In this document: positions 19,305 through 39,349 of the stretch, piece by piece
Position numbering within the stretch: position 1 is the first letter of the stretch
How the letters are laid out: each line of letters begins with the position of its first letter
NCBI GenBank assembly: GCA_041655595.1
Contig: JBBAFB010000003.1
Location: 1-49,727 of the forward strand
Source of the DNA: Bacillota bacterium
GTDB lineage: Bacteria > Bacillota > DULZ01
Length of the DNA stretch: 49,727 bases
Reading direction: 5' to 3'
The notes under the pieces: model-generated
Databases searched by the model: none
Told to the model about the DNA's origin: nothing
What the model saw: the letters and a program-made list of their open reading frames with translations, nothing else
Position numbers and translations under genes: made by a program

Positions 19305-19319
19305 CGCAATTTCCTTTCT

Positions 19320-21829: not shown

Positions 21830-21842
21830 CAAATTCATTCTT

Positions 21843-23119: not shown

Positions 23120-23959
23120 CTAATAATCCTGGCGACGCCCGAAGGCCGCAACCGCCAATATCAAAGGAATCACTACCCATAGAAATAACACTAAGATTAA
23201 AAGAAAATCTCCGGAAGTTGAACTAATGGTACGAGTCAAAGCCGCTAGAGTGGGACCGAAGGTTGTTTCTCCCCCAAGTCGTAAAATCACCAACACCCTA
23301 ACCATGTCCACCGGGTTTAATAATAGCAAAGTCAATAATAGAGGAATGACAATTTTTATCTGCTGCATGGAAGCCACACCGATTGCCAAAAAGTCATAAA
23401 CCAAAACCATCAAAAACCACGCGAATATCGCCAGACCCATGGCTTGAGCCCTTCTACTTGTGACAACTGATAACAATAGGGCTATGCTTAAAAAAGTTAA
23501 ACCCAACACCATCGATAAAATAACAAAGGTTAAATAATCTCCCATACTCATGGTACCTACCTTGAGGGCAATGACAATGCCAGCTCCACCAAAACCAGTT
23601 AAGATTGCTGCCATCAGCGCTAGCCCCAGCCCAAGGAATTTGCCCACTATTACCTCGGCTTTCGAAACCGGGTGGACAAGCAAGACGTGAAGGGATCCGG
23701 ATTCTTTTTCCCCCGCAACTGCAGCCCCCCCCATCACCAAGGCTATGAGGGGCAAAAGATAAAGCACTAAGTTTAGCAAACCGGCGGTGACTCGATTAAA
23801 GCCTTGGTAGCCACCGCCAACCCCCAAACCGGACATGCCAAAAAATGAAATCAGGAGAGCAAGCAAGGCAAAAACTATTGTAAAGGTAATCAGCCAACGG
23901 CTTCTAATAGCTTCCAGAAGCTCTTTTTCAGCTACTGTAATCATTTGAGAAATTTTCAC
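23120..23959 (-). CDS. nosY: ABC-2-type permease of the NosDFY system
   Basis: 279 aa, ~6 TM helices. GTG start preceded by GGGGAGGTGG and overlapping the nosL stop (ATGTGA). Confidence 0.8.
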   Translation of the reverse strand: MKISQMITVAEKELLEAIRSRWLITFTIVFALLALLISFFGMSGLGVGGGYQGFNRVTAGLLNLVLYLLPLIALVMGGAAVAGEKESGSLHVLLVHPVSKAEVIVGKFLGLGLALMAAILTGFGGAGIVIALKVGTMSMGDYLTFVILSMVLGLTFLSIALLLSVVTSRRAQAMGLAIFAWFLMVLVYDFLAIGVASMQQIKIVIPLLLTLLLLNPVDMVRVLVILRLGGETTFGPTLAALTRTISSTSGDFLLILVLFLWVVIPLILAVAAFGRRQDY

Positions 23960-24486
23960 ATTACCACCTCCCCTTCACTTTGCACGCCACCGGTTTCTGT
24001 TTCTGTCCCAAAGCCAATATCAAATTTGACCAACTTAACTTCTTCCCAGGAAATGATCTTTCCTTCAATTTTCTGTGCCATTTCTTCCGCCTGTTCTTGC
24101 GATTTAAAGGCCACTATTCCAAAGCTCATGGGTGTATCAATTCTACCTTGAACATAAAAGGCTTCCTTTGCCGGAGCCCACTCAGTTGTTGCAAAATCCT
24201 TCACATATATTGCACCCAGCGACCTTTCCTCCTCTAAACCTAATCTTTTCAAATAAAGTATCAAGCAACCAATATCATCAAAATTTTCGTGTTGCCCAAG
24301 ATTGTTAATTACCTGGCCTGCAAATCGTAAGTCTATAATACTCATTCTGCAAACTGGACAATCATCGAGGGTCGGATCAATAACCCTTGGTTCCAAATCA
24401 AAACTACTTCCGCATCCTGATAGCAAAAACAATAAAATCAACAAAAATGTAATTGGTAATAGCCTTTTATTTAACACTACATTCAC
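23956..24486 (-). CDS. nosL: NosL copper-chaperone lipoprotein
   Basis: 176 aa. Lipobox LLSGCGS. NosL-type CPVCRM motif close to the N-terminus. Confidence 0.8.
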   Translation of the reverse strand: MNVVLNKRLLPITFLLILLFLLSGCGSSFDLEPRVIDPTLDDCPVCRMSIIDLRFAGQVINNLGQHENFDDIGCLILYLKRLGLEEERSLGAIYVKDFATTEWAPAKEAFYVQGRIDTPMSFGIVAFKSQEQAEEMAQKIEGKIISWEEVKLVKFDIGFGTETETGGVQSEGEVVM

Positions 24487-25966
24487 CCCGTTTAAGCAAG
24501 TTCCGGAACGAGCCCACTTTTTTATCCAAGGAAAGCCCTCTCCAGTAAAGAATAATTCCAGCCAGCAACATTGCCAATGAATAAAGGGCCAGGGTTTTAT
24601 TTGTAGCTTGTTTATTTATTTGAAGGAATTCCGGGATTCTTACTGCCGCCGGATTTATTAAGGGGTATGGATCCTCTGCTTTTGGGATAGAAATAACTGG
24701 AAAAGTCTTTTCACTAAACTCTAGTGCTTTTGCGGCAGGGCTATTTAAAAATAGCCTAACCCCCGGTGCCTTACCCATTAAATAGGTAAAGACATCCCCC
24801 GTAAAATGTGGGATATCACCCACTCCATCTTGATCCAAATCAAACCCTCGGTAATCACTCCAGTAGTTTCCCCGACCGCTAGCATGAAACTCATTACCAC
24901 GGCCAACTGTAAAGGCAATTAGAGCGATTTGCTGCATATTGTCAATAAAGTTGTTATCTATAAAAACGTTATCAGTAGAGCTTGAGATTAGGTCTAGCCC
25001 AATATCATTCATGGCTATTAAATTGTTGCGAATGGTATTGTGCATAGAATGATCCAAAAAAAACCCTCTCGTATTATCAAACACAATATTTCCTTCTGCA
25101 AGGCTGTGGTCGCAATGAGCAAATAGAATCCCATAGGCACGATGTCCTCGGCTTCCTGCCAAAACATTATTTCTGAAAACAATATACTTTGAAAACATGG
25201 GTGCGGCACCTGCAACGTTATCTAACAAAATATTACCTTCAAAGTTGTTATACCATGAATACATATAGTGAATACCATAACGGACGTTAAAAATTTGGTT
25301 ATTAATTACCCTATTATGATAAGAGTAATCAAAATAGATCCCATCCCTAGTATCAGTAATTATATTACTTTCCATCAAATTTTCTGGGGAATCAAATAGG
25401 TGTATTCCATCACCGCCATCACCTGCAAATTTAATGTCATAACTTGAGGCTGCCGTGTTTTCGTCCAATGTAACTTTACCTAAATCTCTAACAACCGGTC
25501 TGCCCTTTATTAAGTTACGCCTGATCACATTTTCAGATGCTCTTTCTAAATAAACCCCAAAAAGATTATTAATAAAACGGTTATCTTCCACTAAGTTATT
25601 ATTACTTTTGATTTTAATTCCGGCGTTGGTCTCCTCTAGAATTTTTCCACTAAAGATAATTTCAAAACCTTTAACAGTTACCTCATCCGCTTCAATTGTG
25701 ATTACATCACCAAGCCCCTCCCCATCAATAATAGGCATTTCAAGCCCTAAAAGCCGTATGGATTTATTAATCACCAATCGCCCATCATACTTACCAGGGT
25801 GCACCCGTATAACATCCCCATCCTCCGCCGTTGTTAAGGCTTTTTGAATAGTAGGTATAGGGCCACCAGGCCAGACTTCGATAGTGCGTGCTTCCGCCGG
25901 GCTGGACAGGATTAAAAAGCACCCCAGAGACAATAAAATTATTGCTCTACTGCCGGCTTTTCCCAT
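24467..25966 (-). CDS. nosD: NosD periplasmic right-handed beta-helix protein
   Basis: Start moved to the ATG at 25964-25966 (GGAGG 8 nt upstream). Signal peptide, many parallel beta-helix repeats (N-I/N-N-x-I patterns), C-terminal TM anchor. Confidence 0.85.
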   Translation of the reverse strand: MGKAGSRAIILLSLGCFLILSSPAEARTIEVWPGGPIPTIQKALTTAEDGDVIRVHPGKYDGRLVINKSIRLLGLEMPIIDGEGLGDVITIEADEVTVKGFEIIFSGKILEETNAGIKIKSNNNLVEDNRFINNLFGVYLERASENVIRRNLIKGRPVVRDLGKVTLDENTAASSYDIKFAGDGGDGIHLFDSPENLMESNIITDTRDGIYFDYSYHNRVINNQIFNVRYGIHYMYSWYNNFEGNILLDNVAGAAPMFSKYIVFRNNVLAGSRGHRAYGILFAHCDHSLAEGNIVFDNTRGFFLDHSMHNTIRNNLIAMNDIGLDLISSSTDNVFIDNNFIDNMQQIALIAFTVGRGNEFHASGRGNYWSDYRGFDLDQDGVGDIPHFTGDVFTYLMGKAPGVRLFLNSPAAKALEFSEKTFPVISIPKAEDPYPLINPAAVRIPEFLQINKQATNKTLALYSLAMLLAGIILYWRGLSLDKKVGSFRNLLKRGECSVK

Positions 25967-26535
25967 CGCCGAAACCTCCAAAGGGCTATCAACATAAGAA
26001 TTATACCAGCCCCTAAAAGATAGCCCCCAAGCTGAAAACTACTATAGGTGGTGAAATTTGCTAGCTGGTTTTGCCCCATCATAGGTGGGACGAAGGGGGG
26101 AATTTTGATAGCCGCCATTGGATCCAAGTCTGTACCATACTTTCTCAGCCAAAACCACAGGTCATAAAGGCCCAACAAACCCCCGGCACCGGCGATAACA
26201 AATGCCGTACTGCCAAGCCACACCTTCCCTGAAATTGCCGTTAAAAAAGCTATGGCCACAATTGCACCCACAATGTAAACCATAAACTGCAACTCGGGAA
26301 AATCGGCCTCAGAAATTTCCTTCATTCCGATGTAATGATTCAAATTGTTTAAAATATCAATTTTCCCACCAATCTTATTAGCAAACACCTCCATCCTGAG
26401 ACCCTCGGGATAAATTGTTGCAATTAATTCCAGTCGCCACCAGGGGAAAAATAAGCACGCTACCAACAACAGCCCAGCAATCACAAATAAAATTCTACCG
26501 GTGATACTAAGTTTTCCATTTAAAAACTTACCCAT
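25939..26535 (-). CDS. nosB: NosB-like integral membrane protein (the gene that follows nosZ in clade II clusters)
   Basis: 198 aa with ~4 TM helices, directly downstream of nosZ. The assignment rests on position and topology only. Confidence 0.55.
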   Translation of the reverse strand: MGKFLNGKLSITGRILFVIAGLLLVACLFFPWWRLELIATIYPEGLRMEVFANKIGGKIDILNNLNHYIGMKEISEADFPELQFMVYIVGAIVAIAFLTAISGKVWLGSTAFVIAGAGGLLGLYDLWFWLRKYGTDLDPMAAIKIPPFVPPMMGQNQLANFTTYSSFQLGGYLLGAGIILMLIALWRFRRWEKPAVEQ

Positions 26536-26626: not shown

Positions 26627-28540
26627 TTAGGACTTTGGCTTAACCAGCAGGAACCCTTGCATTTCCTGGTGTAAGGCTGAGCAGAAATTAGTGCAGTAGA
26701 AGGGATATACCCCAGGTTTATCTGCAACAAATTTCATTGAGGTTGTCTGCCCGGGCTGTACTTCAATATTTAAATCATAGAGGCAGATACCAAAGCCATG
26801 GGTGATATCTTCGTCAAAATCGGTATTGGTTACATACCAAGTAATTTCATCTCCCTCGTCCACTTCTACAATATCCGGGTAATAACGGCTTCGGAAGCTA
26901 TTCATATAAACAGTAACTTGGTTTCCGTTTTTCTCAGTTCGTGCATCTTCCTTTGTATAAACAGCCCCCGGTTGGCTTTCATCCTTGGGATAAATCTTAA
27001 AGACATTTTTCGTAATTTTATCTGCTTTAATCATTTGTGCAAAGTGGGGCTCGGGATCAACCGGGTTATCATAAAGAATCTTCATTTTGGGGGTGGTAAG
27101 GTCAATCAACTGCATACTTTCAGGGTGGGATGGCCCAACAGGCAAAAACTTGTCTTTAGCAAGTTTGTTTAGGGAAATCAGATATTTCCCATCCGGTGAA
27201 ACAGTGTCACCTTCTGCTGCAACTAAGTGGCCTGGGCAGTAATGTACAGGAATTTTATCCACGACTTCAAAAGTATCTAAACTCCACTTGGCTATGGCAC
27301 TTTCAACAAATAAAGTTGTGTAGGCGTGGCCCGTGTTGTCGAATTGTGTATGCAAGGGCCCTAAGCCAACCTCCACTTCAGCAACCCTAACTTTCTCATA
27401 ATTTACAATTGGGAAGCCAGCCTCTTCCCCTTGAAAATCGTTGTTTTCAACACATTCCATGAACTTTTCAAAACTAAATACCGTTGTGATAGGAGCTAAT
27501 TTTCCATTACCAACAATGTATTTTCCGTCCGGTGTAACATCTACACCATGTGGGCTTTTGGCACAAGGTATTAAATATATGGCACCTGGGACATCCAAGG
27601 GGTCAATCACATTTGCACCATCAATTACGGTGTACTTGCCATCCTTCCAGGCCTGTTCCATCATTCTCCAGTTCACAGCCACTATATAATCCCTTTCACG
27701 TTGGGAAGCATTTACCTCCAGTAAAGTGTATGCTTCCTCCGTATTGTAGCTAGTCAAAAATGCCCAACCATCGCTGCCTAATTTACCCGCATCCGAAAGG
27801 TCATAGGACCAAGGAGGTAGCAGGACCTGCCATGGGTTGGACATTTCTCCATCTTCGGGATCAATGGCGATAGCAGCCAATATACATTTGTAATCTTCAC
27901 TAAAATTCTCAATCGGTGAGTAGGTACCATGGGGAACGGGCCCTGCGAATCGTGACGCCATCATATAATATTCGCTATTAGGGGTAACAAAAGCAGCTCC
28001 ATGAGGCCCATAAATATTTGGCACAGTCCCTAGAATTTGACCGGTTGTAAAGGAATCCAGATCAATTCTTGCTACCCTACTGTTGGCGTTATCATTAATA
28101 AATAGCCAGCGACCATCATATTCTCCATTGGTTTCACTTAAACCCGGGTGATGAGCATCCCCCCATCTCCACTCACCTAACATCTCTTTTGATTCTTCTG
28201 TCCAACCATAACCAACAGCCGATTCAGGTGTAAAAACGGGAATCGTTCTGATTCTTCGCATGGACGGAACACCGTAAACAAACACATGCCCTGAATGTCC
28301 ACCCGAAGAAAACATATAGTATTCATCATGTTCCCCGGGTGGCACATATGTTTTTAATGCTGCATCTACGATATCATCAGGGACGCCTGTTTTTGATGCT
28401 ATTGCCCCGGTAAAAATTCCTTCCGTGCCACTGACTTCCCCTTTTGGTGACAATTGAGAAGATAGGACCACCGCTAAAATCAAACCAAGTAATAAACCAG
28501 CCAGGGATAAGGCAATCTTTTTGAAATTTCCATTACCCAT
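26627..28540 (-). CDS. nosZ: nitrous-oxide reductase, clade II (Sec-dependent) type
   Basis: 637 aa. Hydrophobic signal peptide without a twin-arginine. CuZ region WGDAHHPG. C-terminal CuA motif H-x34-C-x3-C-x3-H-x2-M (HGFGI...CTNFCSALHQEM). Confidence 0.95.
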   Translation of the reverse strand: MGNGNFKKIALSLAGLLLGLILAVVLSSQLSPKGEVSGTEGIFTGAIASKTGVPDDIVDAALKTYVPPGEHDEYYMFSSGGHSGHVFVYGVPSMRRIRTIPVFTPESAVGYGWTEESKEMLGEWRWGDAHHPGLSETNGEYDGRWLFINDNANSRVARIDLDSFTTGQILGTVPNIYGPHGAAFVTPNSEYYMMASRFAGPVPHGTYSPIENFSEDYKCILAAIAIDPEDGEMSNPWQVLLPPWSYDLSDAGKLGSDGWAFLTSYNTEEAYTLLEVNASQRERDYIVAVNWRMMEQAWKDGKYTVIDGANVIDPLDVPGAIYLIPCAKSPHGVDVTPDGKYIVGNGKLAPITTVFSFEKFMECVENNDFQGEEAGFPIVNYEKVRVAEVEVGLGPLHTQFDNTGHAYTTLFVESAIAKWSLDTFEVVDKIPVHYCPGHLVAAEGDTVSPDGKYLISLNKLAKDKFLPVGPSHPESMQLIDLTTPKMKILYDNPVDPEPHFAQMIKADKITKNVFKIYPKDESQPGAVYTKEDARTEKNGNQVTVYMNSFRSRYYPDIVEVDEGDEITWYVTNTDFDEDITHGFGICLYDLNIEVQPGQTTSMKFVADKPGVYPFYCTNFCSALHQEMQGFLLVKPKS

Positions 28541-28645: not shown

Positions 28646-29209
28646 TTATTCTTGCCCCCCTTGCCCTAATCCAGTTTCGCCTTCATCATAGGCTGATAAC
28701 CGCCCCGCTACCCTTCCATCGTGGGCTTTTTTGATGAGATCTAAGATTATCACCTTATCCTCATCATTTAATCGGTCTGGAATGATTGCCCCCATTGTAC
28801 CCTCAGGCTCCCGAAGAAAATCTTCCAGACTTCTACCGAAGCGATCTGGGACATCAGTATAAGCTATGGATAAGTCTGGTCCCGTTTCCCCACCTTTAAG
28901 TTCATAATAAGTAATGCGATGGCATTGAACACAGGCCTTCGTTGTAAAAATCTCCTCCGGCATTCCAATATTACTAACACCTTGGCTGCCGGATGTTGCA
29001 GTGGTTACCTTTTGCTGGCCCTCAGGGGTTAAACCCAAATTATAAACCAAAGCAACCTCTTCCTCCATCAGGGGATAGTATTTCGGGGCTGAAATTACAC
29101 TGCCAGTTAGCCCCACCAAGAAACCCATCCCGATCCACATGGCAAGAAGGACTACGGTTTCCTTGCGGATTATACTCACTTTCTCACCTTCCTTTCCCAA
29201 CTTCAGCAT
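28646..29209 (-). CDS. membrane-anchored monohaem c-type cytochrome (likely electron donor to NosZ)
   Basis: One TM helix, then CVQCH. An alternative GTG start at 29179 has a better SD (GGAAGGTGA). Confidence 0.7.
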   Translation of the reverse strand: MLKLGKEGEKVSIIRKETVVLLAMWIGMGFLVGLTGSVISAPKYYPLMEEEVALVYNLGLTPEGQQKVTTATSGSQGVSNIGMPEEIFTTKACVQCHRITYYELKGGETGPDLSIAYTDVPDRFGRSLEDFLREPEGTMGAIIPDRLNDEDKVIILDLIKKAHDGRVAGRLSAYDEGETGLGQGGQE

Positions 29210-29221
29210 TTTGTTGAGTTT

Positions 29222-29611
29222 TTAATTGATTAAACCTATATAGGTCAACACAACCATTATTATCAAGGTTATTTCCGCTAAATAGATTAACCAAGCTCGA
29301 TCAGCAGCTTTTTTGGATTTTCCCCTGTCTAACCACGGGACTGCAATTAAACCAATTATCAGCAACACCGGCAAAAACACACCCAATATATCCGGCACAA
29401 TCGCCAATAGACCAAAAATCCACAGAAAATACCACTCTGGCATAATGTTTTCCGGAGTCATAATGGTATTTGCCGGCGGCCCAAGGTGGGCGGGCCAAAG
29501 ACCTGCCAAAATGAGCACAAATCCAAGAATTGCAAAAGCCACTGATACCTCAGTAATTAAGTGATGAGGGAAGAAAGGTACAGATCCTTTTCGTTTTTCG
29601 ATTGTATTCAA
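29222..29611 (-). CDS. cytochrome b6f/bc subunit IV-like protein (C-terminal half of a split cytochrome b)
   Basis: 129 aa, 3 TM helices, PEWYFLW quinol-site motif. TTG start with AGGAGGTGA upstream. Confidence 0.7.
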   Translation of the reverse strand: MNTIEKRKGSVPFFPHHLITEVSVAFAILGFVLILAGLWPAHLGPPANTIMTPENIMPEWYFLWIFGLLAIVPDILGVFLPVLLIIGLIAVPWLDRGKSKKAADRAWLIYLAEITLIIMVVLTYIGLIN

Positions 29612-29622: not shown

Positions 29623-30261
29623 CTATAGCCCACCAGATATGCCTTGCTTACGAACTAAGTAAAAATGAACGATTAAAAGCCCAATAGTGGACACAGGTAA
29701 GACGCAGATATGCAAGATATAAAAACGCATAAGGGTATACCCTGTAACCTTGCTACCGCCTTGTACAATCGTTAATAGCTTTGACCCGATTAACGGGACT
29801 GTGCCCATGATTTTAGCTCCTATTACCGCCGCCCAATAACCGACCTGGTCCCAAGGCAGTAGGTACCCTGTAAAAGAAAATACAAAAACTAATACAAGTA
29901 ATAAGGATCCAGCCACCCAATTAAATTCCCTGGGATGTTTATAGGCACCGGTGTAGATAACTCGCAACATGTGTAGCACCACCATAATTACCATTAAATT
30001 TGCCGAAATATTATGGATGGAGCGAATTGCTGCTCCCATGGTCACCTCATTTTCTAAAAACAAAATACTTTGATAAGCCAACTCAGGTGTAGGTTTATAA
30101 TACAAAGCTAAAATAGCCCCAGTGATTCCCTGTATGAGAAACAGTAAAAATGTAATTCCTCCAAAACAATACATGAAATTCCGTACCTCTTTTGCCACCG
30201 GCTTAGAGGACATATCATGCCAAATACCCTTTAGGGTAATTTCTTTCTCCTCTACCGCCAC
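29623..30261 (-). CDS. cytochrome b6-type subunit (N-terminal four-helix di-haem half)
   Basis: Start moved to the GTG at 30259-30261, directly after the Rieske stop with GGAGGTGG upstream. 4 TM helices with conserved His pairs (SIHNISANLMV..LHMLR; FYILHICVLP). Confidence 0.85.
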   Translation of the reverse strand: MAVEEKEITLKGIWHDMSSKPVAKEVRNFMYCFGGITFLLFLIQGITGAILALYYKPTPELAYQSILFLENEVTMGAAIRSIHNISANLMVIMVVLHMLRVIYTGAYKHPREFNWVAGSLLLVLVFVFSFTGYLLPWDQVGYWAAVIGAKIMGTVPLIGSKLLTIVQGGSKVTGYTLMRFYILHICVLPVSTIGLLIVHFYLVRKQGISGGL

Positions 30262-30263: not shown

Positions 30264-30725
30264 TTACACCACCTCCTTTTGTACCAAAATAACCCCTTCT
30301 TCCACCCAAGCTGTTAACTCTGCTAAAGGTTTCGGTGGAGGGCCATGCAATACATTACCATCCTCGTCAAAAATACCACCATGACAGGGACATTCAAACT
30401 GACGTTTTTTATCGTCCCAGGCTACGATACATCCTAAGTGAGTACATACCCTTGAAAAGGCCCTATATTTGCCATCCTTTTTAAATAGAATAGCCGGAAA
30501 GCCATCATATACAAAATCAAAGGGCTTGCTTGAAATATTATCTTCTTTAGCAACTGCCATTCTAGGTGGTTGGGGCTTAAGAGCCCTGGGAGCATCTATG
30601 GCACCTCCTAATGCGGCCAAGGGAACTACAGCCGCGACAACTGCGGGTGCTGTTGCCACTAAACCCAAAAACTTTCTTCTTGTAACTTCATCATGATCGT
30701 ATTTTTCACTGCACATTTCCTTCAC
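30264..30725 (-). CDS. Rieske [2Fe-2S] protein with Tat signal
   Basis: 153 aa. TRRKFLG twin-arginine motif. Rieske boxes CTHLGC and CPCHGG. Exact start is ambiguous (GTG at 30725 or ATG at 30716). Confidence 0.9.
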   Translation of the reverse strand: MKEMCSEKYDHDEVTRRKFLGLVATAPAVVAAVVPLAALGGAIDAPRALKPQPPRMAVAKEDNISSKPFDFVYDGFPAILFKKDGKYRAFSRVCTHLGCIVAWDDKKRQFECPCHGGIFDEDGNVLHGPPPKPLAELTAWVEEGVILVQKEVV

Positions 30726-30930
30726 ATTCCTCCCTTAAGTAGACTGTTCGGAACGCATTAATAGCCAAAGCAGCCGCTAAACATATCAAACCGGCAAATA
30801 TGCTAACCCAACGGCTATTACCTGCGGCCCAGCTCCTGGCAATCATGAAAACTAAGGTAATTGAAGCCCATGTTCCAAGGCCCGCAATAATTATTGCTTC
30901 TTTGTAACCTGCCTTACTCCAAAAATTCAT
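30706..30930 (-). CDS. small two-TM membrane protein of unknown function
   Basis: Start set to the ATG at 30928-30930 (GGGAG 8 nt upstream). 74 aa, two hydrophobic helices. Embedded in the nos operon. Confidence 0.4.
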   Translation of the reverse strand: MNFWSKAGYKEAIIIAGLGTWASITLVFMIARSWAAGNSRWVSIFAGLICLAAALAINAFRTVYLREECEGNVQ

Positions 30931-30950: not shown

Positions 30951-31265
30951 TTATCTTGGATAGGCGGTTTCTAGGTATTCAATAATTTGTTCTGTTTCGC
31001 TATCCGTGAAAAACCCACCAAAGTCAACCATTAATTCCACAATTTCTGGCCAAGTAGCGGACCCTTGGTAATTTTGAACCCGATCAACCTCATGACAGTT
31101 TGTACAAGTCGACTGAAATGTTAAATAATTAGCATCTCCTGTTGCTTTGGAATCAGGAGGTAAAGGAATTGCATAGGCCGAAACAAAGATAAAGCCTATT
31201 ACCAAGCCAACAATTAACATTTTGCTGGTTAGGGTCCAAGTCAAAACCTTTTTAGCTGTTTGCAT
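30951..31265 (-). CDS. membrane-anchored monohaem c-type cytochrome (first gene of the nos operon)
   Basis: 104 aa. N-terminal TM helix and CTNCH haem motif. SD AAGGGGGTGA 9 nt upstream. Confidence 0.75.
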   Translation of the reverse strand: MQTAKKVLTWTLTSKMLIVGLVIGFIFVSAYAIPLPPDSKATGDANYLTFQSTCTNCHEVDRVQNYQGSATWPEIVELMVDFGGFFTDSETEQIIEYLETAYPR

Positions 31266-31383
31266 TCTTTATTCTCACCCCCTTTCATTGCACTTCTCAA
31301 TTGTGATTTCTTTTTCAATCCCCCCTTGATATAACAAGGTTTCCAGATACCACTTTTAAAGGGAAACCTTTCACTAATTCTTT

Positions 31384-31400
31384 ATGCAACTTTCGTGCCA
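31384..31400 (-). promoter_or_regulatory. sigma-54 (-24/-12) promoter of the nos operon
   Basis: Minus strand reads TTGGCACGAAAGTTGCAT, which matches the consensus TGGCAC-N5-TTGCW at every fixed position. It lies ~120 nt upstream of the first cytochrome c start. Confidence 0.75.
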
Positions 31401-31443
31401 AGGTTTAGTGAGTGTGCAAAGGCAATATTAACTATTAATTAAC

Positions 31444-31470
31444 AAAAATGTGGGGAGTATATGCCCCACA
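31444..31470 (-). terminator. probable terminator of the upstream ABC/DUF4418 operon
   Basis: Minus strand reads TGTGGGG-CATATACT-CCCCACA followed by TTTTTGTT. It sits ~45 nt upstream of the nos sigma-54 promoter. It could alternatively be an activator-binding palindrome. Confidence 0.5.
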
Positions 31471-31620
31471 CCAACCCATGTGTGCCCCAACTTTATTCCA
31501 CGGGGACAGCTTTTTGCCCATTTGAATATTTCCACAAACCTTTTTCCCAAAGAAAAATTGCACCCCGCCAATGTTTCAACGGGATGCATATTCAAAGAGA
31601 GGGTGGTTTTTGAAATATTT

Positions 31621-32040
31621 TTATATTGTTATTTCATCCTTAATAGTTTGCAAATACACACCCAACAGGACAATAATCCCCCCTAAAACATAGAACACCT
31701 TTGCGGTAGTATGACATTCCATGGGCATCATGCAAACTCCAATACCTAAATTAGTCGGCAATATTATTACTATTAATCCCAGGGTTGCCATTATTATCCC
31801 AAGACGCTTTTGGACTAATAATTCTTTGCTCAAAAATATCAACAAACCGGTAACTAGTATAACTAGTCCCAGCAAAACCCCCGCCTGCCCCGTATAATGA
31901 CATTTCATATGGACCATTTTACCCGTGGTCAATTCCAAAAGTTTTGCACATACCGGAGCTAATTGAAAAGGTGTTAGGACCACGACTGCTCCAATAATTG
32001 TGCCAACAAGACCGACCGCTTTGCTTCTTTTGTTATACAC
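31621..32040 (-). CDS. DUF4418-like four-TM membrane protein with Cys/His/Met motifs
   Basis: 139 aa. GTG start with AGGAGG 7 nt upstream. Motifs HMKCH and CMMPMECH face the same side between TM helices. Confidence 0.6.
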   Translation of the reverse strand: MYNKRSKAVGLVGTIIGAVVVLTPFQLAPVCAKLLELTTGKMVHMKCHYTGQAGVLLGLVILVTGLLIFLSKELLVQKRLGIIMATLGLIVIILPTNLGIGVCMMPMECHTTAKVFYVLGGIIVLLGVYLQTIKDEITI

Positions 32041-32107
32041 TTTAAAACCTCCTTTTAACTAGTTCTATTGTTAAGCTTTTTATATTGGGTTTAAGGTATT
32101 ATTGGGT

Positions 32108-32830
32108 TTATCTCGACAGATTTACAAACTGGCTTGCCACCTCTTTAAAAAAAGTCCTATTGAGGCAGCCCTGCTTTAAGGAGTAGACGTGCTCAGCATT
32201 TTTTGCAAGCACCACATCGTGGGTGGCAACAACAACTATTTTCCCTGTTCTTCCCTGTCCCATTAACCAATCACCTAAGTGCTGCCGTAAACTCTCATCC
32301 TGTTCCGCCGTTGGTTCATCTGCTAAAATTAAGTCCGGCTCATTTGCCAAGGCTCTAGCCAAAGCAACTCTACGCCTTTGGCCACCGCTTAATTGGTGAG
32401 GTAAAAATTGTGTTCTGTCCGCTAAATCTAGATCCTTTAAAAGAGTGTCTACCCTTTGGTTGGCTTGCATTTCATTCATTTTTTTTCTTCCTTTAATCCA
32501 AAGTGGCAATAAAATATTTTCCTTTACAGTTAGGGTAGGAATTAAATAACATCGCTGAAAAACGAAACCAATTTTGTATGAACGTAAGTAGGTCTTTTCT
32601 TTCTCATCCATCATGCAGATTGAGCGCCCATCAAAAATCACCTCTCCTTGGCTGGGTTTTAGCAAAAGGCCCAAAATATGCAGCAAAGTGCTTTTACCAC
32701 TCCCCGAGGGACCTAACAAGCTAACTGTATCACCGGATTTTAAATTCAAATTAACTCCCCTGATTGGCTGCACCTGACCACCTAAGCCATCCTGGTAGAC
32801 ATGAGAAACGTCTTTTAATTCAATTTCCAT
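32108..32830 (-). CDS. ABC transporter ATP-binding protein
   Basis: 240 aa. Walker A GPSGSGKST, signature LSGGQRRR, Walker B ILADEPT. Confidence 0.9.
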   Translation of the reverse strand: MEIELKDVSHVYQDGLGGQVQPIRGVNLNLKSGDTVSLLGPSGSGKSTLLHILGLLLKPSQGEVIFDGRSICMMDEKEKTYLRSYKIGFVFQRCYLIPTLTVKENILLPLWIKGRKKMNEMQANQRVDTLLKDLDLADRTQFLPHQLSGGQRRRVALARALANEPDLILADEPTAEQDESLRQHLGDWLMGQGRTGKIVVVATHDVVLAKNAEHVYSLKQGCLNRTFFKEVASQFVNLSR

Positions 32831-32843
32831 CTTTTCACCACCC

Positions 32844-34046
32844 TTATTTTAACTCTCCTTCGGTAAGAACAACTACAGGATCAAGTTTGGCTGAGGTTCT
32901 TGCAGGCCCCAAAGCGGCCAAAGTACTAATGAAGATAACCAATAAGACTGCAAAAAATAAAATACCCAGTAGCTGTAAACCTAGTGGTAGTAAGAAAGGA
33001 AATGAACTGTGTTTTTCTATAAAATTTTTCAAAAACCAAATAAAACCAAAGCCCAAGAAAACTCCTATGCCTCCTGCAACAAAGGCAGTGGTAAAGGTTT
33101 CCGCCATAATTAAATTAAATAGACCCTTTTGCCCCATTCCCAGAGCCCTTAAAAGCCCTAACTCTTCCTGCCTTTCCATTACTAAAGACGAATAACGAGA
33201 TAACAATGAGGCTAAGGTCAATCCAATTATTAAAGCTGCCAATAACCAAGTTAAAACTTGAAATACCTTTAACTGTTCTTTTAAATCTAAAAATATTTTG
33301 GCCGATGCCATAGCCTTTACCCCAGGTATGCGCCCAATTTGTCTTGCTAGAATTGCGGGATCATAATTGCTTTCTACTTGTATTAAAACTGCTGAAACCA
33401 ACTCCAAAGGGTCACCTTGCTCCTCCCATATCTCAACCAAAAAAGGACTCCCTGATGCTAAACTTCTTGCGGTTTCGATGGGTACGAAAATAGTTTTATC
33501 AACGCTACCCCCCAAAGGTTTTAAATAATCTACTACCTGAAAGGCCTCTCCCAAAATTAATACCCTGTCTCCGAGAAAGGCCGGAACTCCGCCACCTACA
33601 ACTACTTCTTTTTCTTTTAACTCTCTTCCTAAACCTATAGATAAAAGGCGATTTACCAGAAAATCATTTTCCGGATCGTAACCGACTAAACGGTATTCCT
33701 CTGGTAGGCTACAACAACTTTGATTTAAAGTTTGACTAAAAAACTGAGCTGTGGCTGCCTTTACACCCGGTATTAGAGCTATTTCCTCTACTATTTCTTT
33801 TTTCATATAAATATTTGCGGGAGAACCAGTAAATAGCACCTGCCCTGCCTCAAACTCCGCGGAAGAAGGCAGTGCTAGTATATCGGCACCTAAGTTATCG
33901 GCCGTTCCTTTTGCACCCCTTTCCAACCCCCAAACGGTTAAAAAACAAGTTACCAGGGCAGCAGTGCAAAAGCAAACCACAAAAACAGTTAAACCTGTTT
34001 GCCATGGACGGCGCCGCAAATTTCTACTGATTAAACGCCAATACAT
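32844..34046 (-). CDS. FtsX/MacB-type ABC transporter permease
   Basis: Start moved to the ATG at 34044-34046 (GGGGGGTGG upstream). TM1, a large extracytoplasmic domain, then 3 C-terminal TM helices. Confidence 0.8.
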   Translation of the reverse strand: MYWRLISRNLRRRPWQTGLTVFVVCFCTAALVTCFLTVWGLERGAKGTADNLGADILALPSSAEFEAGQVLFTGSPANIYMKKEIVEEIALIPGVKAATAQFFSQTLNQSCCSLPEEYRLVGYDPENDFLVNRLLSIGLGRELKEKEVVVGGGVPAFLGDRVLILGEAFQVVDYLKPLGGSVDKTIFVPIETARSLASGSPFLVEIWEEQGDPLELVSAVLIQVESNYDPAILARQIGRIPGVKAMASAKIFLDLKEQLKVFQVLTWLLAALIIGLTLASLLSRYSSLVMERQEELGLLRALGMGQKGLFNLIMAETFTTAFVAGGIGVFLGFGFIWFLKNFIEKHSSFPFLLPLGLQLLGILFFAVLLVIFISTLAALGPARTSAKLDPVVVLTEGELK

Positions 34047-34104: not shown

Positions 34105-34344
34105 AGATATTTGTTGCGGAATTATGCACTTACAAGTGAAACAATTATCTTATTCGCCTTTTATGCTATTTTGAGCGAGACATGTCTGACCCTACTGTCC
34201 CCTCCCTGCCCCTAATTTCTGTAACACAAAATACTTACAAGGTGGCAAGCCTTGCCCCCAAACGCTTGATTTATGGTCCTTGCCATAAACAATTAACTGG
34301 GTTTTTTCGCCTTAAATATCAGCATTTGATTACCTTTGAAAAGT

Positions 34345-34360
34345 TGGAATGTTTTTTGCT
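34345..34360 (+). promoter_or_regulatory. sigma-54 promoter of the lipoprotein gene
   Basis: Plus strand reads TGGAATGTTTTTTGCT, identical to the divergent promoter at 15 of 16 positions. It lies ~52 nt upstream of the ATG at 34412. Confidence 0.6.
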
Positions 34361-34411: not shown

Positions 34412-34972
34412 ATGCAACAAAGAAAAATTAATAAAATTCTATCAGTTCTATTGTCTATTCTTATTTTAGGCTCCATCACCAGTTGCGGACAAAACACACT
34501 CCCGGGAACAAATGAAATAAAAGATGCCGATCAGACTGTCCACAACCATCAGAGTTTTAGCACTGTCTACGAGCTGGATCAAATAATAGAGTTACACCCT
34601 ATTAAAGTGAGACTGGTAAATACCGGAATAATTTCTAACCCTTTATATGAAAAAGGAAGTGATGATCAGAAGGGACATTTGGCATTAGGTCTGGAAGTAG
34701 GAAATGTATCAAGCGATCTGGCATGGTTTTTTTCCGAACAATCCGAGATAATTCTGAATTCGGGTGAAATCTTAGAAACGGATGTAAACACATCCTCTGA
34801 TTTGGGAGGAAGTTTTCCACCCCACAGATTGAAAAAAGGGTTTTTAGTTTTTCCTTTTAAAGATACGGAGCCAAATACAATCAAAGAATATGTTTTAAAA
34901 ATCAAAGCCCCCTTAAATAGCAAACAAATTTCCATTGGGGAGGATTTAGAATTAAAAATTAACCTAAAATAA
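34412..34972 (+). CDS. secreted lipoprotein, DUF4352-like beta-sandwich
   Basis: 186 aa. Lipobox GSITSCG. Family call is tentative. Confidence 0.55.
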   Translation: MQQRKINKILSVLLSILILGSITSCGQNTLPGTNEIKDADQTVHNHQSFSTVYELDQIIELHPIKVRLVNTGIISNPLYEKGSDDQKGHLALGLEVGNVSSDLAWFFSEQSEIILNSGEILETDVNTSSDLGGSFPPHRLKKGFLVFPFKDTEPNTIKEYVLKIKAPLNSKQISIGEDLELKINLK

Positions 34973-34994
34973 AAAAAGCCTTAAGGCTTTTTTT
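34971..34994. terminator. bidirectional terminator between convergent genes
   Basis: AAAAAAAGCC-TTAA-GGCTTTTTTT, a palindromic hairpin with A/T runs on both sides. Confidence 0.75.
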
Positions 34995-35009: not shown

Positions 35010-36386
35010 CTAAATTAAGTTATATTTATTTAATAAACGGTGAATCGTTTTTCTGTCAATCTCTGCAGTTATAGCTGCCTGGGTTACATTTCCATCATGC
35101 TTTTCCAATAAATTTTCTATATATTTTATTTCAAAATCTTTTACCCAGTTTTGTTTTGCCACATGAAAAGGCAGATCGAAAAGCATTTGATTTGATCTAT
35201 CTTCATTATTTTTAAGAAGGTTTGGGGGTAAATCTTCAGGCAATATTGTTTCCCCTTCACAAAGTGAGATAGCTCTTTCTATCACATTTTTTAACTCCCT
35301 AACATTACCCGGCCAGTTATAACTTTGTAAAATCTCCATCGTTTCAGCTGAAACCCCGCTAATTTTCTTTTGTGCCGTCTCTGCAAATTTGCGACTAAAA
35401 AAATACACTAGTAGAGGGATATCCTGCTGCCTTTCTCTTAACGGTGGTAGTTTCAAATTAATTACATTAATTCTATAGTATAAATCGTCTCTAAATTCTT
35501 TGTGTTGAATTGCCTCTTCTAAATCGCGATTTGTTGCGGAAACTAGGCGGAAATCTACTTTAATCAACTGATTTCCCCCCACTCTTCTAAATGAGCGTTC
35601 TTCTAAAGCTCTTAACAACTTTGCCTGTAAAATCGGACTCATTTCACCTATTTCATCTAGGAAAAGAGTACCCTTATCTGCCAGTTCCATTAAACCCTTT
35701 TTAGTCATGTGGGCCCCGGTAAAGGCACCTTTTTCGTGACCAAAAAGTTCACTTTCCAGTAAATTATCCGGCAAAGAAGCGCAGTCAACTGGTATAAAAG
35801 GTCCTAGGCTCCGATTGCTGTTTTTGTGGACACTTCTGGCGATCAGTTCTTTCCCTGTACCACTTTCCCCTTTGATCAGTACTGCTGCTTCACTGCCACC
35901 TAATTTACCGATGGTTCTAAAAATTTCTTGAAGCCCACCGTTAGCGCCAATAATATTTTCTGTGTGGAGGGGCTCTTGGATTTGCATTCTTAATAATCGG
36001 TTTTCTTCCCTTAATGCTTTTTCCCGCAAGGCTTTTTCAATCACAATCTGCAATTCATCAACGGAAAAAGGTTTAGCGAGATAATCCCGTGCTCCACCTT
36101 TCATAGCCCTGACCGCAGTATCTATGCTGGCATAACCCGTAATAACAATTACACATGTGTCGGGAAAAAGCTCCTTCGCAACTTTTAAAACTTGAAATCC
36201 ATCTACCTCCGGCATTTTTAAATCAGTAATAATCAAATCCGGTTGTATTTTTTCCATTTCGGCTACCGCTTTCGCACCCTCATTAAAGTTTACCGGTTTA
36301 TAGCCCATTTTTTTAACAACACGCGAGCAAGTTTCAAGCATATCAAGTTCATCATCAACAAGCATTACAACCCTTGGTTCTTCCAT
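35010..36386 (-). CDS. sigma-54-dependent NtrC-family response regulator (REC + AAA+ + Fis-type HTH)
   Basis: 458 aa. Receiver (DDE...IITDLKMP), Walker A GESGTGKE, sigma-54 contact loop GAFTGA, C-terminal HTH (GNVTQAAITAEIDRKTIHRLL). Confidence 0.9.
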   Translation of the reverse strand: MEEPRVVMLVDDELDMLETCSRVVKKMGYKPVNFNEGAKAVAEMEKIQPDLIITDLKMPEVDGFQVLKVAKELFPDTCVIVITGYASIDTAVRAMKGGARDYLAKPFSVDELQIVIEKALREKALREENRLLRMQIQEPLHTENIIGANGGLQEIFRTIGKLGGSEAAVLIKGESGTGKELIARSVHKNSNRSLGPFIPVDCASLPDNLLESELFGHEKGAFTGAHMTKKGLMELADKGTLFLDEIGEMSPILQAKLLRALEERSFRRVGGNQLIKVDFRLVSATNRDLEEAIQHKEFRDDLYYRINVINLKLPPLRERQQDIPLLVYFFSRKFAETAQKKISGVSAETMEILQSYNWPGNVRELKNVIERAISLCEGETILPEDLPPNLLKNNEDRSNQMLFDLPFHVAKQNWVKDFEIKYIENLLEKHDGNVTQAAITAEIDRKTIHRLLNKYNLI

Positions 36387-36392: not shown

Positions 36393-37658
36393 CTACTCCC
36401 TTATGCTAATATATGGGAAGTAAATACTAAATCTACTTCCCTTACCCAGTTCGCTGGATACATTTATGGTACCACCATGGTCGCCAATAATTTTTAAACT
36501 AACGGGTAAGCCCAAACCAGTGCCCAGGTCTCTGCTTTTAGTGCTAAAAAAAGGATCAAAAAGTTTAGCTATAGTTTCTTCTGTCATCCCCTCGCCAGTA
36601 TCTTCTATATCCAGCCTGTTCACCTTTAACTCCGGCAAGTTTCGGCAAACTATAAAAATATTTCCACCACGTGGCATGGCATCCCCGGCATTGGCGATTA
36701 GATTAACTAATACTTGTTGAAGCTGCTCCTTATTCCCTTCCACTACAATGGAATCCGGCAATTTTATTTTAAACTCAATCCCTTTTCTAAGAAATTGTCT
36801 TTTAAACCAATCAACAGTTTCATTCACTAAAGGTTTCAAATCAACCAACTCTGTTTCTGCAATGGGTGGCCTTGTAAAAGTAAGCAGTCCCCTTGTAATA
36901 TGACTGATTCTTTCTATATGTTTTTTTATAATTTCCAAATCTTTAACCAATTCGGGAGACAAACTACTACCCATCTCTAAAAATATTAACCCCAACCTTG
37001 CACTGATGACACCCACCGGGTTATTTATTTCATGCGCCAAATTTGCAGCCAGTTGTCCTGCCGCTGCTAGCCTTTCGGTTAGTATCATCTGATTTTGTGC
37101 CTTTTCTAATTCCTCAATACTTTCTCTGAGGGCCTCATTTAGCCCGCAAATTTCTTTATTGGCTTTTTCTAGGCTGTCCCTTTCTTCAGCTAAATTGTTT
37201 ATTAAACGATCCCTATGCAGGGTTGCGGCTAATTGATGTCCAATGGCCATGATAATTTCCATATTGGCTCTACTCAATTTTTCTTCCCCGGGGTTTTTTA
37301 AAGTTATTACCCCTAAAACTTCAGTTCCTGCAACTAGTGGTATGCAGACATGACAAAGGGAGTAACACTCTTTCTGAACCACACCACAACAGTGAGACCT
37401 TTTATCTGCATTAATAATAATTGGGAGCTGGTCATTATAAACCTTACATTGGTGTTTTTTATCAATGGTACTACAGACAAAATTGCCCCCATCTTGTAGC
37501 TTAATTTGGGACTTATAAGGACTAAATGCCTTATTTAATTCGTTTTTTGCTGCATCAAGCATTTCATCAATAGACAAAGGTAAAAAGCTGGTAATATTAT
37601 TAATTTTAATTAAAGCCTCCGTTTGCAAGTTCAGCTTCCTGTCAAGCAAAAACCTCAC
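36393..37658 (-). CDS. soluble sensor histidine kinase with a Cys-rich GAF-like N-terminal domain
   Basis: 421 aa with no TM helices. GAF-like region contains 7 Cys, including CC-x6-C-x3-C-x2-C. H-box LAHEINNPVG, N box NLIANAGDA, G boxes DTGEGM and GTGLGL. The start may be the TTG at 37628 (AGGAAG SD) rather than the GTG at 37658. Confidence 0.85.
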   Translation of the reverse strand: MRFLLDRKLNLQTEALIKINNITSFLPLSIDEMLDAAKNELNKAFSPYKSQIKLQDGGNFVCSTIDKKHQCKVYNDQLPIIINADKRSHCCGVVQKECYSLCHVCIPLVAGTEVLGVITLKNPGEEKLSRANMEIIMAIGHQLAATLHRDRLINNLAEERDSLEKANKEICGLNEALRESIEELEKAQNQMILTERLAAAGQLAANLAHEINNPVGVISARLGLIFLEMGSSLSPELVKDLEIIKKHIERISHITRGLLTFTRPPIAETELVDLKPLVNETVDWFKRQFLRKGIEFKIKLPDSIVVEGNKEQLQQVLVNLIANAGDAMPRGGNIFIVCRNLPELKVNRLDIEDTGEGMTEETIAKLFDPFFSTKSRDLGTGLGLPVSLKIIGDHGGTINVSSELGKGSRFSIYFPYISIRE

Positions 37659-38664
37659 CCTTTACCACTTTACCCATTATACTAATGTTTGCCGGATTTG
37701 CATTTAACGGGACTTCACACCCTGTACTTAAAATAAAACCTTTCCCTTTGCTCCCAATATCAAGCAAATCCTTACATTGTTTAGCTATATCTTCTGTCTT
37801 TAGATTAATTAGATCAAAAGGTTTAATGTTACCAGCTAAGGCGAGATCAGGTGCTAGATCCATACACTCTTTTAAAGAAACTTCATAATCAATTGTGGCC
37901 AAATCAACACCGCAATCTTTATAGTAAGGTATAATGTATTTTGTCCTACCCGTAATCATTAACCAATTTATTTTTGCACCTTCAAGACGAAAGTGAGAAA
38001 ATAGTTCCTTTAAGAGGGGGGCTACAAATTTGCGAAAAATCCGAGGAGGAATAATATTTTGCGAAGCGGTTGGTTCCATGATGATAATTATTGAAGCCCC
38101 CGACCTAATCAGGGCCTTTCCATAATCTTTGCAAACATGAAATGTTTGTCTTAACAAGCTTCGAAACTTATCTGGTTCATCTACTAATAAATACAGCAAT
38201 TGATCTAAACCCATTAGTTGTCCCGCAATGCTTGTCGGTCCAACCACACACCCAACCACCGGTATATCATCCTTCACATTTTCCTTTAAGATAGCACATG
38301 CTTTAATTACTTCCCGCATCCTGCCCGCTGTATAAGGATCGAATAACGGCAGGTCCTTGATCTTTGATAGACTAGAGAAAACAGGTCTTGTCACATAAGG
38401 GTAATCATTTTCAGGAAAATATGTTTTACAGCCCAGAACCTCCGCCTCTAGGGAGTTATCACCATAGGCAAAAACAGCATCATAGCCAAAGTGCTTTTGT
38501 GCCCTTAGTTGACAATCTGCCATTATTTCTCCGTTGTCCAAATAATCTTTGAGCCAAACCCCCTGAAAAATTGCAGCATAACCAAATACAAGCGGAATGC
38601 AAATACAATCAGTATGTTTTTTTTTGCCTTCAACCATTGCTATCATTTTTTGCAATACGGTCAT
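37642..38664 (-). CDS. UroD-superfamily MtaA/MtbA-like corrinoid methyltransferase homologue
   Basis: Start moved to the ATG at 38662-38664 (GGAGTG upstream). 340 aa. URO-D/MT2-A-like length and sequence, and it follows a corrinoid protein gene. Confidence 0.75.
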   Translation of the reverse strand: MTVLQKMIAMVEGKKKHTDCICIPLVFGYAAIFQGVWLKDYLDNGEIMADCQLRAQKHFGYDAVFAYGDNSLEAEVLGCKTYFPENDYPYVTRPVFSSLSKIKDLPLFDPYTAGRMREVIKACAILKENVKDDIPVVGCVVGPTSIAGQLMGLDQLLYLLVDEPDKFRSLLRQTFHVCKDYGKALIRSGASIIIIMEPTASQNIIPPRIFRKFVAPLLKELFSHFRLEGAKINWLMITGRTKYIIPYYKDCGVDLATIDYEVSLKECMDLAPDLALAGNIKPFDLINLKTEDIAKQCKDLLDIGSKGKGFILSTGCEVPLNANPANISIMGKVVKGEVFA

Positions 38665-38668
38665 AATG

Positions 38669-39349
38669 TTACACTCCTTCTTTCTTTCGAAGATAGTCAA
38701 TTACGTCAAAAGCAGTATTAGCAACAAAATCAACATTTAAGTCCTTAGGGTTTGATTGGCGGGTGGCACCACCCCCCGCTAAAACAAGGACACCTTCCAA
38801 ATCAATCGCACCTAATGCTGGCTTCACTTCCTTAATGTAATGCATGGTGGTAGTGATTAAACTGCTAATGCCGATATATTTTGCGCCTTCTTTTTTAGCC
38901 TCCATTGCAAAAACTTCCGGCTCGACATCCTTTCCCAAATCTACCACTCTATAGCCGGCCATTTTTAGTAAGATGGCCACTATATTTTTACCAAGGTCGT
39001 GAATATCCCCCTTAATGGTCCCTAAAACAAAAACCTCTTTACCTTTATACCAGGTATCTAAAGAAACACACTCCCCTTCACCTAAACGTGGACAAATAGA
39101 TTGTTCCATAACTTCCATAACAGCCCTGCCAGCCAATAATATTTCCAAAAGATTAAAATGGTCATTATTACATTTAACATCCAAAGAAACTAGGGCTTCA
39201 GTTAGGCCTTCCTCTACAACTTGACGCACATCAACACCTAGAGCCAGTAAGTTTTCCGCTACCCTGACCGCCTCGGTAGCCTGTCCATCTGCCACAAGGT
39301 CTGCTAGTCTTTTTATTTCATTTTTTCTTGAATCTTTTTTTGCTGCCAT
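38669..39349 (-). CDS. corrinoid (B12)-binding protein, MtaC/MtbC-like (cap + Rossmann domain)
   Basis: 226 aa. Base-off/His-on signature GDIHDLGKN ... SSLITTT ... LAGGGA. SD GGAGG 6 nt upstream. Confidence 0.85.
   Translation of the reverse strand: MAAKKDSRKNEIKRLADLVADGQATEAVRVAENLLALGVDVRQVVEEGLTEALVSLDVKCNNDHFNLLEILLAGRAVMEVMEQSICPRLGEGECVSLDTWYKGKEVFVLGTIKGDIHDLGKNIVAILLKMAGYRVVDLGKDVEPEVFAMEAKKEGAKYIGISSLITTTMHYIKEVKPALGAIDLEGVLVLAGGGATRQSNPKDLNVDFVANTAFDVIDYLRKKEGV

Follow-up and report, generated by a model that had tools for sequence, protein, structure and literature searches.

Transcription of nosZ, the gene for nitrous oxide (N2O) reductase, and of its accessory genes is controlled in the described systems by NosR (clade I), by the Crp/Fnr-type factors DNR, NnrR and FixK2, or by NssA, NssB and NssC of Wolinella, which are also of the Crp/Fnr type. 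In Clostridiales, where the sigma-54 repertoire has so far been mostly one of fermentation and amino-acid catabolism, not one of 39 reconstructed enhancer-binding protein (EBP) regulons has nos or any other respiratory reductase as its target (Nie, Dong and Yang 2019, PMC6615313). Here we describe a locus from the same phylogenetic setting, in a 49,727-nt stretch of contig JBBAFB010000003.1 from a Bacillota bacterium (assembly GCA_041655595.1; the whole stretch is called the window below and belongs to a 138-kb metagenome contig of an uncultured organism), in which a 12-gene clade II nos operon on the minus strand is preceded by a -24/-12 promoter motif, and the gene for a bacterial EBP (bEBP) lies 3.6 kb upstream of nos with a sensor kinase gene beside it. 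The motif is very probably a working sigma-54 promoter of nos that is opened by this adjacent two-component bEBP, with two further promoters driven likewise. A preliminary description made from the sequence alone had pointed out that such a route would differ from described nos regulation, and this agrees with the searchable literature, in which no paper linking sigma-54 or a bEBP to nos in Bacillota was found; regulators and promoters are unmentioned in the Desulfosporosinus and Desulfitobacterium nos-cluster papers found.

The sequence TGGCACGAAAGTTGCA (minus strand, 31400 to 31385) matches every fixed position of TGGCAC-N5-TTGCW, with GG at -24 and GC at -12 separated by 10 bp, and is the single match to this consensus in the window. 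The slightly wider minus-strand reads are cTTGGCACGAAAGTTGCATaaag (31401 to 31384) and CTTGGCACGAAAGTTGCATAAAG (31402 to 31380). The motif lies between genes, on the coding strand of nos, and the C of the -12 GC (31386) lies 121 nt before the ATG at 31265, so both the perfect motif and its distance of about 120 nt from the first cytochrome c gene were as originally reported. The predicted transcription start is near 31374. No FNR/Crp-type box was found in 31266–31620 at two or fewer mismatches.

The bEBP gene (35010–36386, minus strand) encodes a protein with the architecture of the NtrC family, comprising a receiver domain (REC, PF00072) whose D55 is invariant in 8 sequences, an AAA+ domain (PF00158, Sigma54_activat, E = 5.8e-69, with the AAA lid PF25601) carrying GESGTGKE and GAFTGA, and a Fis-type helix-turn-helix (HTH) domain (HTH_8, PF02954). 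Its scores stayed below all NCBIfam equivalog cut-offs (AtoC, 489 against 714; NtrC, 421 against 559; ZraR, 377 against 760; NorR, 313 against 476), and judged by these models the protein belongs to the superfamily but falls outside the AtoC, NtrC, ZraR and NorR orthologue groups. The neighboring gene (36393–37649, minus strand) encodes a soluble sensor histidine kinase without membrane segments, in which a Cys-rich GAF-like N-terminal domain with weak GAF matches is followed by HisKA and HATPase domains. In the sensor region, C71 is invariant in 19 sequences, C105 is conserved in at least 90%, and the six closest orthologues also keep C91 and H103, a pattern that suggests a Cys-ligated metal or Fe-S cofactor. 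The AlphaFold model of the kinase had a mean predicted local distance difference test score of 78, with the Cys-rich loops 59–64 and 92–97 below 50, and a Foldseek search of the PDB with this model returned generic kinase cores only, which is uninformative on the sensor ligand.

Loci for comparison (designated by L numbers) were obtained by a NosZ-alignment scan of 185,579 species genomes, which gave 80 loci, to which exact look-ups of close NosZ relatives contributed further ones. The order corrinoid protein, MtaA-like enzyme, kinase, bEBP and nos was found in 12 independent loci (11 with downstream DNA visible; L092 is cut just upstream of the bEBP gene), and the corrinoid protein and MtaA-like genes precede the kinase–bEBP pair in every locus with that side visible. 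The pair stands beside nos in L003 (Bacillota MAG074), L083 (Desulfitobacterium chlororespirans, GCA_900143285.1), L085, L088, L090, L093, L094, L096, L097 (Thermanaeromonas sp. C210), L099 (Desulfosporosinus, GCA_030500275.1) and L100. In L003, L083, L085 and L090 the order is URO-D, kinase, bEBP, lipoprotein, MacB-ABC-DUF4418 and nos; L088, L092 and L094 have no MacB operon at this point and their bEBP gene is next to nos, a divergent lipoprotein gene alone separating the two in L088. The nos electron-transfer module of L092 is a different one (cupredoxins and a Fer4_5 protein), yet an orthologous bEBP gene lies directly upstream.

Searches that started from the kinase led to the same arrangement. 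A metagenome scan with the kinase sensor domain gave four loci, all with B12, URO-D, kinase and bEBP genes; the three whose downstream DNA extends far enough all carry nos, which in L094 follows the module immediately. A single-sequence search with the full-length kinase found only about 20 orthologue clusters in 5.8 billion proteins, beyond which scores dropped sharply to generic kinase-core matches, whereas a profile search of the same database with the sensor domain alone gave no match. Four of the kinase-cluster contexts were examined, and three show the full array up to nosZ (L097, L099 and L100). By gene order, the kinase–bEBP module is thus linked to nos in every informative locus. In L098 (stretch 8309–14468) the kinase orthologue is, at 34% identity, the most distant of all, and the B12, URO-D, kinase and bEBP genes are retained in this arrangement. 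They are followed by the palindromes GTGACATTATTGTCAC and AGGACAAAATTGTCCC, the sequence TGGAAT-N5-TTGCA and genes for a receiver-only protein and for a multihaem cytochrome c, and the contig stops before nos could come into view.

In nine distinct loci the first nos gene is immediately preceded by a -24/-12 element, namely in the window and L003 (TGGCACATCATTTGCT), L085 (TGGCATGAATTTTGCA), L088 (TGGCACAGGTTTTGCG), L091 (TGGCATGATTCTTGCG), L092 (TGGCATAATCCTTGCG), L094 (TGGCACGGTTTTTGCT), L097 (TGGCATAGAATTTGCT) and L100 (TGGCACGGGTTTTGCT). Among the nine promoters the spacers have diverged but GG, GC and the consensus around them have not, which is what selection on a sigma-54 promoter predicts.

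The upstream regions of all three promoter types discussed here (nos, and the MacB and lipoprotein promoters described below) share a 16-bp palindrome, GGGRCAT-N2-ATGYCCC, which is the predicted upstream activator sequence (UAS); such sites are expected about 60–150 bp from the promoter. Predicted UAS were located 61–63 and/or 82–84 bp upstream of the -24 GG in 8 of the 9 nos promoters and at 96 bp in L097 (distances from UAS centre to GG of 61, 61, 62, 62, 63 and 63 bp, of 82, 83, 83, 84 and 84 bp, and of 96 bp), so that paired sites would be separated by two helical turns, as is the case with NtrC-type activators. In the window, the proximal predicted UAS GGGGCATATACTCCCC (31467 to 31452) is centred 61 bp upstream of the -24 GG, and a distal, half-conserved candidate, GGGGCACACATGGGTT (31488 to 31473), is centred 82 bp upstream; the latter is proposed by position only, this being where L003, L088, L092 and L100 hold full second sites. 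When a weight matrix was built leaving out one locus at a time, the top hit fell within a sigma-54 promoter region in 7 of 7 loci (12–22 kb each, of which such regions make up 1.3–3.2%), the proximal UAS being the top hit in the window's 21.9-kb locus, and the same top-hit result was obtained for 6 later loci that had never served as seeds. The 29 site–promoter pairs follow a 10.5-bp helical phasing (Rayleigh p ~1e-4), though the UAS seeds were first chosen by eye and the loci are related, so that they are less independent than the phasing and rank statistics imply. Seven nos-linked bEBPs that were aligned, the 51%-identical L092 protein among them, all share the HTH segment DRKTIHRL, which differs in the unrelated bEBP of L075.

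Other sites of these two kinds were seen near nos in the relatives. In L090 (7340–7355), L096 (16027–16042) and L099 (15981–15996), where nos is fused to the DUF4418 operon, the UAS-like 16-mer GAGACAAA(A/T)NTGTCCC immediately precedes the ribosome-binding site of nos and is not followed by a sigma-54 promoter; it could be a remnant or have another role, e.g. as a roadblock. In L003 a sigma-54-type site, TGGCATAATTCTTGCT, is found downstream of the nos cluster (20823–21382), intergenic before a gene for a PCC-domain protein.

A relaxed motif search of the window gave two further -24/-12 sites, located exactly at the starts of the two units that lie between the bEBP gene and nos. The second promoter, TGGCATGTTTTTTGCT (34104 to 34089, minus strand), has its -12 C 28 nt before the ATG (34046) of the MacB-ABC-DUF4418 operon (31621–34046, minus strand), which consists of genes for a MacB-like permease (32844–34046), an ABC ATPase (32108–32830) and a DUF4418 membrane protein (31621–32040). 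It is conserved in L003, L083, L085, L090, L093, L096, L097, L099 and L100. The third, divergent and sigma-54-like promoter, TGGAATGTTTTTTGCT (34345–34360, plus strand), ends 52 nt before the ATG of a 186-aa lipoprotein gene (34412–34972, plus strand). Between the two divergent promoters lies the UAS-like palindrome GGGTCAGACATGTCTC (34177–34192), centred 82 bp from the MacB -24 GG, which is the best non-seed match in the whole window and ranked second in the leave-one-out scan. The MacB-ABC-DUF4418 operon, which is fused to nos in some relatives, is predicted from these sites to be co-regulated with nos. The DUF4418 protein contains two similar Cys-His motifs, HMKCHYT and PMECHTT, suggesting metal binding, and a perfect bidirectional terminator, AAAAAAAGCCTTAAGGCTTTTTTT (34971–34994), lies between the convergent bEBP and lipoprotein genes.

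The nos unit comprises, as the preliminary description had it, 12 co-directional genes, all on the minus strand, with gaps of 105 nt or less and without a predicted internal terminator. Six electron-transfer genes encode a 104-aa membrane-anchored c-type cytochrome (CxxCH, weak SorB-type cytochrome c match; 30951–31265), a small membrane protein of 74 aa (30706–30930), a Rieske [2Fe-2S] protein (30264–30716), a cytochrome b of the N-terminal/b6 type (29623–30261), a PetD-like cytochrome b C-terminal subunit (29222–29611) and a second c-type cytochrome of 187 aa (CxxCH; 28646–29209). They are followed by nosZ (26627–28540), a gene for a nosB-like 198-aa membrane protein (25939–26535), nosD (24467–25966), nosL (23956–24396), nosY (23120–23959) and nosF (22135–23109), with a terminator-like hairpin 3′ of nosF (21804–21830, minus strand). 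The N-terminus of NosZ has no twin-arginine motif, consistent with a Sec-type (clade II) enzyme, and its closest named relatives are Desulfitobacterium proteins annotated as Sec-dependent nitrous-oxide reductase, with 76% (D. chlororespirans) and 73% identity. The Rieske and cytochrome b genes upstream of nosZ are likewise those of a clade II cluster, and so is the nosB-like gene, as clade II nosB sits directly after nosZ (PMC11096178). No NosR-type protein was found among the window proteins by Pfam annotation, and no nosR, nosX or Crp/Fnr gene lies next to the nos cluster in the window. After the nos terminator comes a second set of genes for HlyD, an ABC ATPase and a MacB-type permease (18141–21583, minus strand), which is not present in the D. 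chlororespirans or L085 loci. Three candidates upstream of nos were tried and rejected: a riboswitch or leader RNA (the best Rfam match over 31200–31700, to a miRNA family at E = 0.12, is not credible), a structured leader (the 113-nt nos leader folds no better than shuffled sequence, z = -0.29) and a sigma-70 promoter, for which 39 matches were counted against 38.8 expected, i.e. chance frequency.

Promoter elements, the domains and motifs of the bEBP, gene linkage and the conserved sites with their spacing were all read from the sequence and its comparison with relatives, and from them the following scheme is proposed. Sigma-54 RNA polymerase would bind TGGCAC-N5-TTGCA (31400–31385) in a closed complex that is unable to start alone. 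The Cys-rich GAF kinase would phosphorylate the bEBP (35010–36386), dimers of which would bind the 16-bp palindromes about 62 and 83 bp upstream of the -24 GG; the ATP-driven oligomer would then contact sigma-54 through its GAFTGA loop and open the complex. A single transcript would run through the 12 genes, from the Rieske/cytochrome bc module through nosZ to nosBDLYF, and the same bEBP would drive the two further sigma-54 promoters of the lipoprotein gene and the MacB-ABC-DUF4418 operon. Our best guess for the signal is a redox, metal or N-oxide cue received by a Cys-ligated cofactor of the kinase, possibly with the co-operonic corrinoid protein.

Several observations weigh against this scheme, in addition to the choice of UAS seeds and the relatedness of the loci mentioned above. 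The exact nos-promoter motif alone reaches only about p = 0.05 per window, since dinucleotide shuffles of the window gave an expectation of 0.05 matches and at least one match in 5 of 100 shuffles; by itself the motif would be modestly unlikely, and its weight comes from position and conservation. A functionless chance match is nevertheless barely conceivable, given that eight other loci keep the site in position while their spacers have diverged, that a bEBP gene is adjacent and that the UAS stand at fixed spacing. Pfam annotation of all large open reading frames found no rpoN in the 49.7-kb window, whose genes include fmt, def, priA, metH, TRAP and MFS transporters, metK and coaBC; rpoN is presumably present in this genome because the bEBP is intact. 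Neither a bEBP gene nor a sigma-54 site was found at the nos loci of Schinkia azotoformans, Calidifontibacillus, Planifilum and Bacillus sp. DNRA2, which rules out sigma-54 control as a general Gram-positive feature of nos, and in the loci compared it appears as a lineage-specific solution. Five relatives (L083, L090, L093, L096 and L099) have no nos promoter of their own, nos lying 43–72 bp past DUF4418, so the promoter is evolutionarily dispensable and upstream read-through may matter here too. Two gaps of 91–105 nt flank nosZ, where internal promoters are possible. These last two points, together with a weak sigma-70-like match at 31300–31271, would also fit a real sigma-54 promoter that only boosts a nos expression derived mainly from read-through of the MacB operon and/or from sigma-A promoters. 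We regard this as unlikely, because sigma-70-like matches are at chance level, two terminator-like hairpins lie between DUF4418 and nos in the window, and read-through would itself start at a sigma-54 promoter with the same type of UAS, so that RpoN dependence would stay. In the five relatives the MacB sigma-54 promoter presumably serves both units and, own or shared, a predicted sigma-54 promoter precedes nos in all these loci. The earlier proposal that nos is read from a sigma-54 promoter and depends on an activator is thus supported by the bEBP and kinase in the window, the conserved -24/-12 element, the palindrome spacing and the lack of an FNR box in the region scanned, whereas its qualifier "strictly" is inferred, upstream sigma-54 read-through or a weak sigma-A promoter being possible.

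The other two alternatives concern the activator and its site. A different bEBP encoded elsewhere might activate nos, with the local pair controlling only the lipoprotein and MacB units or the corrinoid methyltransferase genes; the 3.6 kb and the other operon between the bEBP gene and nos would allow this, as would the 17 EBPs of D. hafniense. It is highly improbable, however, given that the same type of palindrome occurs at the nos, MacB and lipoprotein promoters, that the bEBP gene directly abuts nos in L088, L092 and L094, that the recognition helix of the bEBP co-varies with the presence of the palindrome, and that no sigma-54 site was found before the corrinoid gene. As to the site, the hairpin and T-run that had been placed at 31444–31470 as the probable end of the preceding operon does exist, at 31472–31447 (minus strand; a 9-bp stem followed by TTTTGTTAATT), and may be a secondary terminator, but the role assigned to it fits another hairpin better. 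The latter, with a 13-bp stem followed by ATTTTTCTTT (31588–31559, minus strand), lies 33 nt past the DUF4418 stop codon and is predicted to be the better terminator, closing the DUF4418 operon. The hairpin at 31472–31447 overlaps the proximal UAS and seems to be mainly this predicted activator site plus flanking bases. Its stem and T-run, and the T-runs that likewise follow the palindromes in L003 and L094, are what a plain terminator would show, yet that it is a terminator and not an activator site is quite improbable. A stronger terminator lies upstream, the palindromes keep the same spacing from -24 in L088, which has a divergent gene upstream and no T-run after them, and in L092, directly after the bEBP gene, and the palindrome sequence is conserved beyond stem pairing. 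The two roles are not mutually exclusive, and a dual one is possible.

Activation by the adjacent bEBP is also in keeping with D. hafniense DCB-2, which has SigL (Dhaf_4719) and 17 EBPs, among them the response-regulator-type Dhaf_0198 with GAFTGA and HTH_8 and with no regulon assigned (Nie et al. 2019, PMC6615313, Tables S1 and S2). As nosZDFYL of this strain are Dhaf_0209–0214 (Kim et al. 2012, PMC3306737), Dhaf_0198 stands 11 locus tags before nosZ (Dhaf_0209), matching the gene order here, and in a count along the D. chlororespirans locus (bEBP, lipoprotein, three transporter and six electron-transfer genes, nosZ) the bEBP falls precisely on 0198. Going by gene numbering, Dhaf_0198 is likely the D. 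hafniense orthologue of the window bEBP.

bEBP genes less than 10 kb from nosZ are also present in L022, L038, L070, L005 and L006, and in the locus L075 (333–8603), from an Ignavibacteriales metagenome-assembled genome, genes for a hemerythrin, an Fe-S flavoprotein and Rieske/cytochrome b proteins run up to a clade II nosZ and are themselves preceded by genes for a HAMP kinase and a bEBP of the NtrC type, together with an exact site, TGGCACGGCGCTTGCT. It may be that clade II nos came under the control of sigma-54 on more than one occasion.

Upstream of the kinase gene in the window are genes for an MtaA/CmuA-family methyltransferase of the URO-D fold (37642–38700, minus strand), whose coding region overlaps that of the kinase, and for a corrinoid (B12-binding) protein with a DxHxxG motif (38669–39349, minus strand), which overlaps the methyltransferase gene and is the first gene of the regulator operon; the match of the corrinoid protein to the CarH model is marginal (22 bits against a cut-off of 400). 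Such an operon of corrinoid, MtaA/CmuA-type, kinase and bEBP genes with overlapping coding regions was seen in the window (36393–39349, minus strand), L083, L088, L090 and L093–L100, and in L088 a gene for a RACo-type corrinoid activator and a second URO-D gene lie upstream in addition. Oxidation of cob(I)alamin is the route by which N2O inactivates cobalamin, cobalamin-dependent methionine synthase is the classical target, and we know of no dedicated N2O sensor described in any organism. Given that N2O inactivates cobalamin (PMC11906303), it is conceivable, though doubtful, that the corrinoid protein and the MtaA-like enzyme are the sensor part, the oxidation or methylation state of the corrinoid being read by the Cys-rich GAF kinase; the cell would thus have a direct sensor of N2O, or one of N2O damage, that turns nos on via sigma-54. 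A gene for a MetH-like cobalamin-dependent methionine synthase (S-methyl_trans, Pterin_bind and B12-binding domains; 7533–9944, minus strand) lies about 12 kb beyond the downstream end of nos, and this proximity is probably coincidental.

N2O reductase is the only known biological N2O sink (PMC11906303), and non-denitrifying clade II reducers such as Desulfitobacterium and Desulfosporosinus are candidates for the mitigation of N2O emission, for which no description of the trigger of nos expression was found in the searchable literature. The sigma-54 promoter, the kinase–activator pair and the DNA site together constitute a specific and conserved candidate for this switch, which would add a respiratory regulon to the sigma-54 repertoire of Bacillota. 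As the module occurs in named, sequenced organisms (D. chlororespirans, a Desulfosporosinus, Thermanaeromonas sp. C210 and, by gene numbering, D. hafniense DCB-2), the signal that induces clade II nos becomes directly testable by mutation of the activator, promoter or kinase.

Compared with known systems, the proposed mechanism would be textbook sigma-54 two-component control, while the regulon, the DNA site and the sensor appear to be new. NosR, DNR/NnrR/FixK2 and NssA/B/C act on the same target, nosZ and its accessory genes, but the promoter class and the activation mechanism differ here. CarH and AerR are B12 photoreceptors, and MsmS and RdmS are GAF kinases next to corrinoid methyltransferase genes of Methanosarcina; with all of these the locus shares the genetic coupling of a B12 protein to transcription control, a likeness we offer as a lead only, and it differs in that a separate corrinoid protein and an MtaA-like enzyme precede the kinase and bEBP. 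NorR, which serves norVW in E. coli and norAB in Ralstonia (PMC1274295), resembles the system in combining a sigma-54 promoter and a bEBP with a nitrogen-oxide reductase and a GAF domain on the sensing side. NorR, however, is a one-component regulator with non-haem iron in its own GAF domain, whereas here the GAF-like domain is part of a kinase of its own and a receiver domain belongs to the activator; the match to the NorR model is confined to AAA+ and HTH (the 313 bits given above, against 476), and the target is nos, not nor. NtrBC, AtoSC and ZraSR share with the locus the pairing of a kinase with a REC-AAA+-HTH_8 activator carrying GAFTGA and the tandem palindromes about 60–100 bp upstream of a GG-N10-GC promoter, and the best family scores are to AtoC and NtrC for the bEBP and to AtoS and ZraS for the kinase. 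The locus differs from these three in scores below the equivalog cut-offs, a soluble Cys-rich GAF kinase, the predicted UAS GGGRCAT-N2-ATGYCCC, a Bacillota anaerobe as host and N2O respiration as the target.

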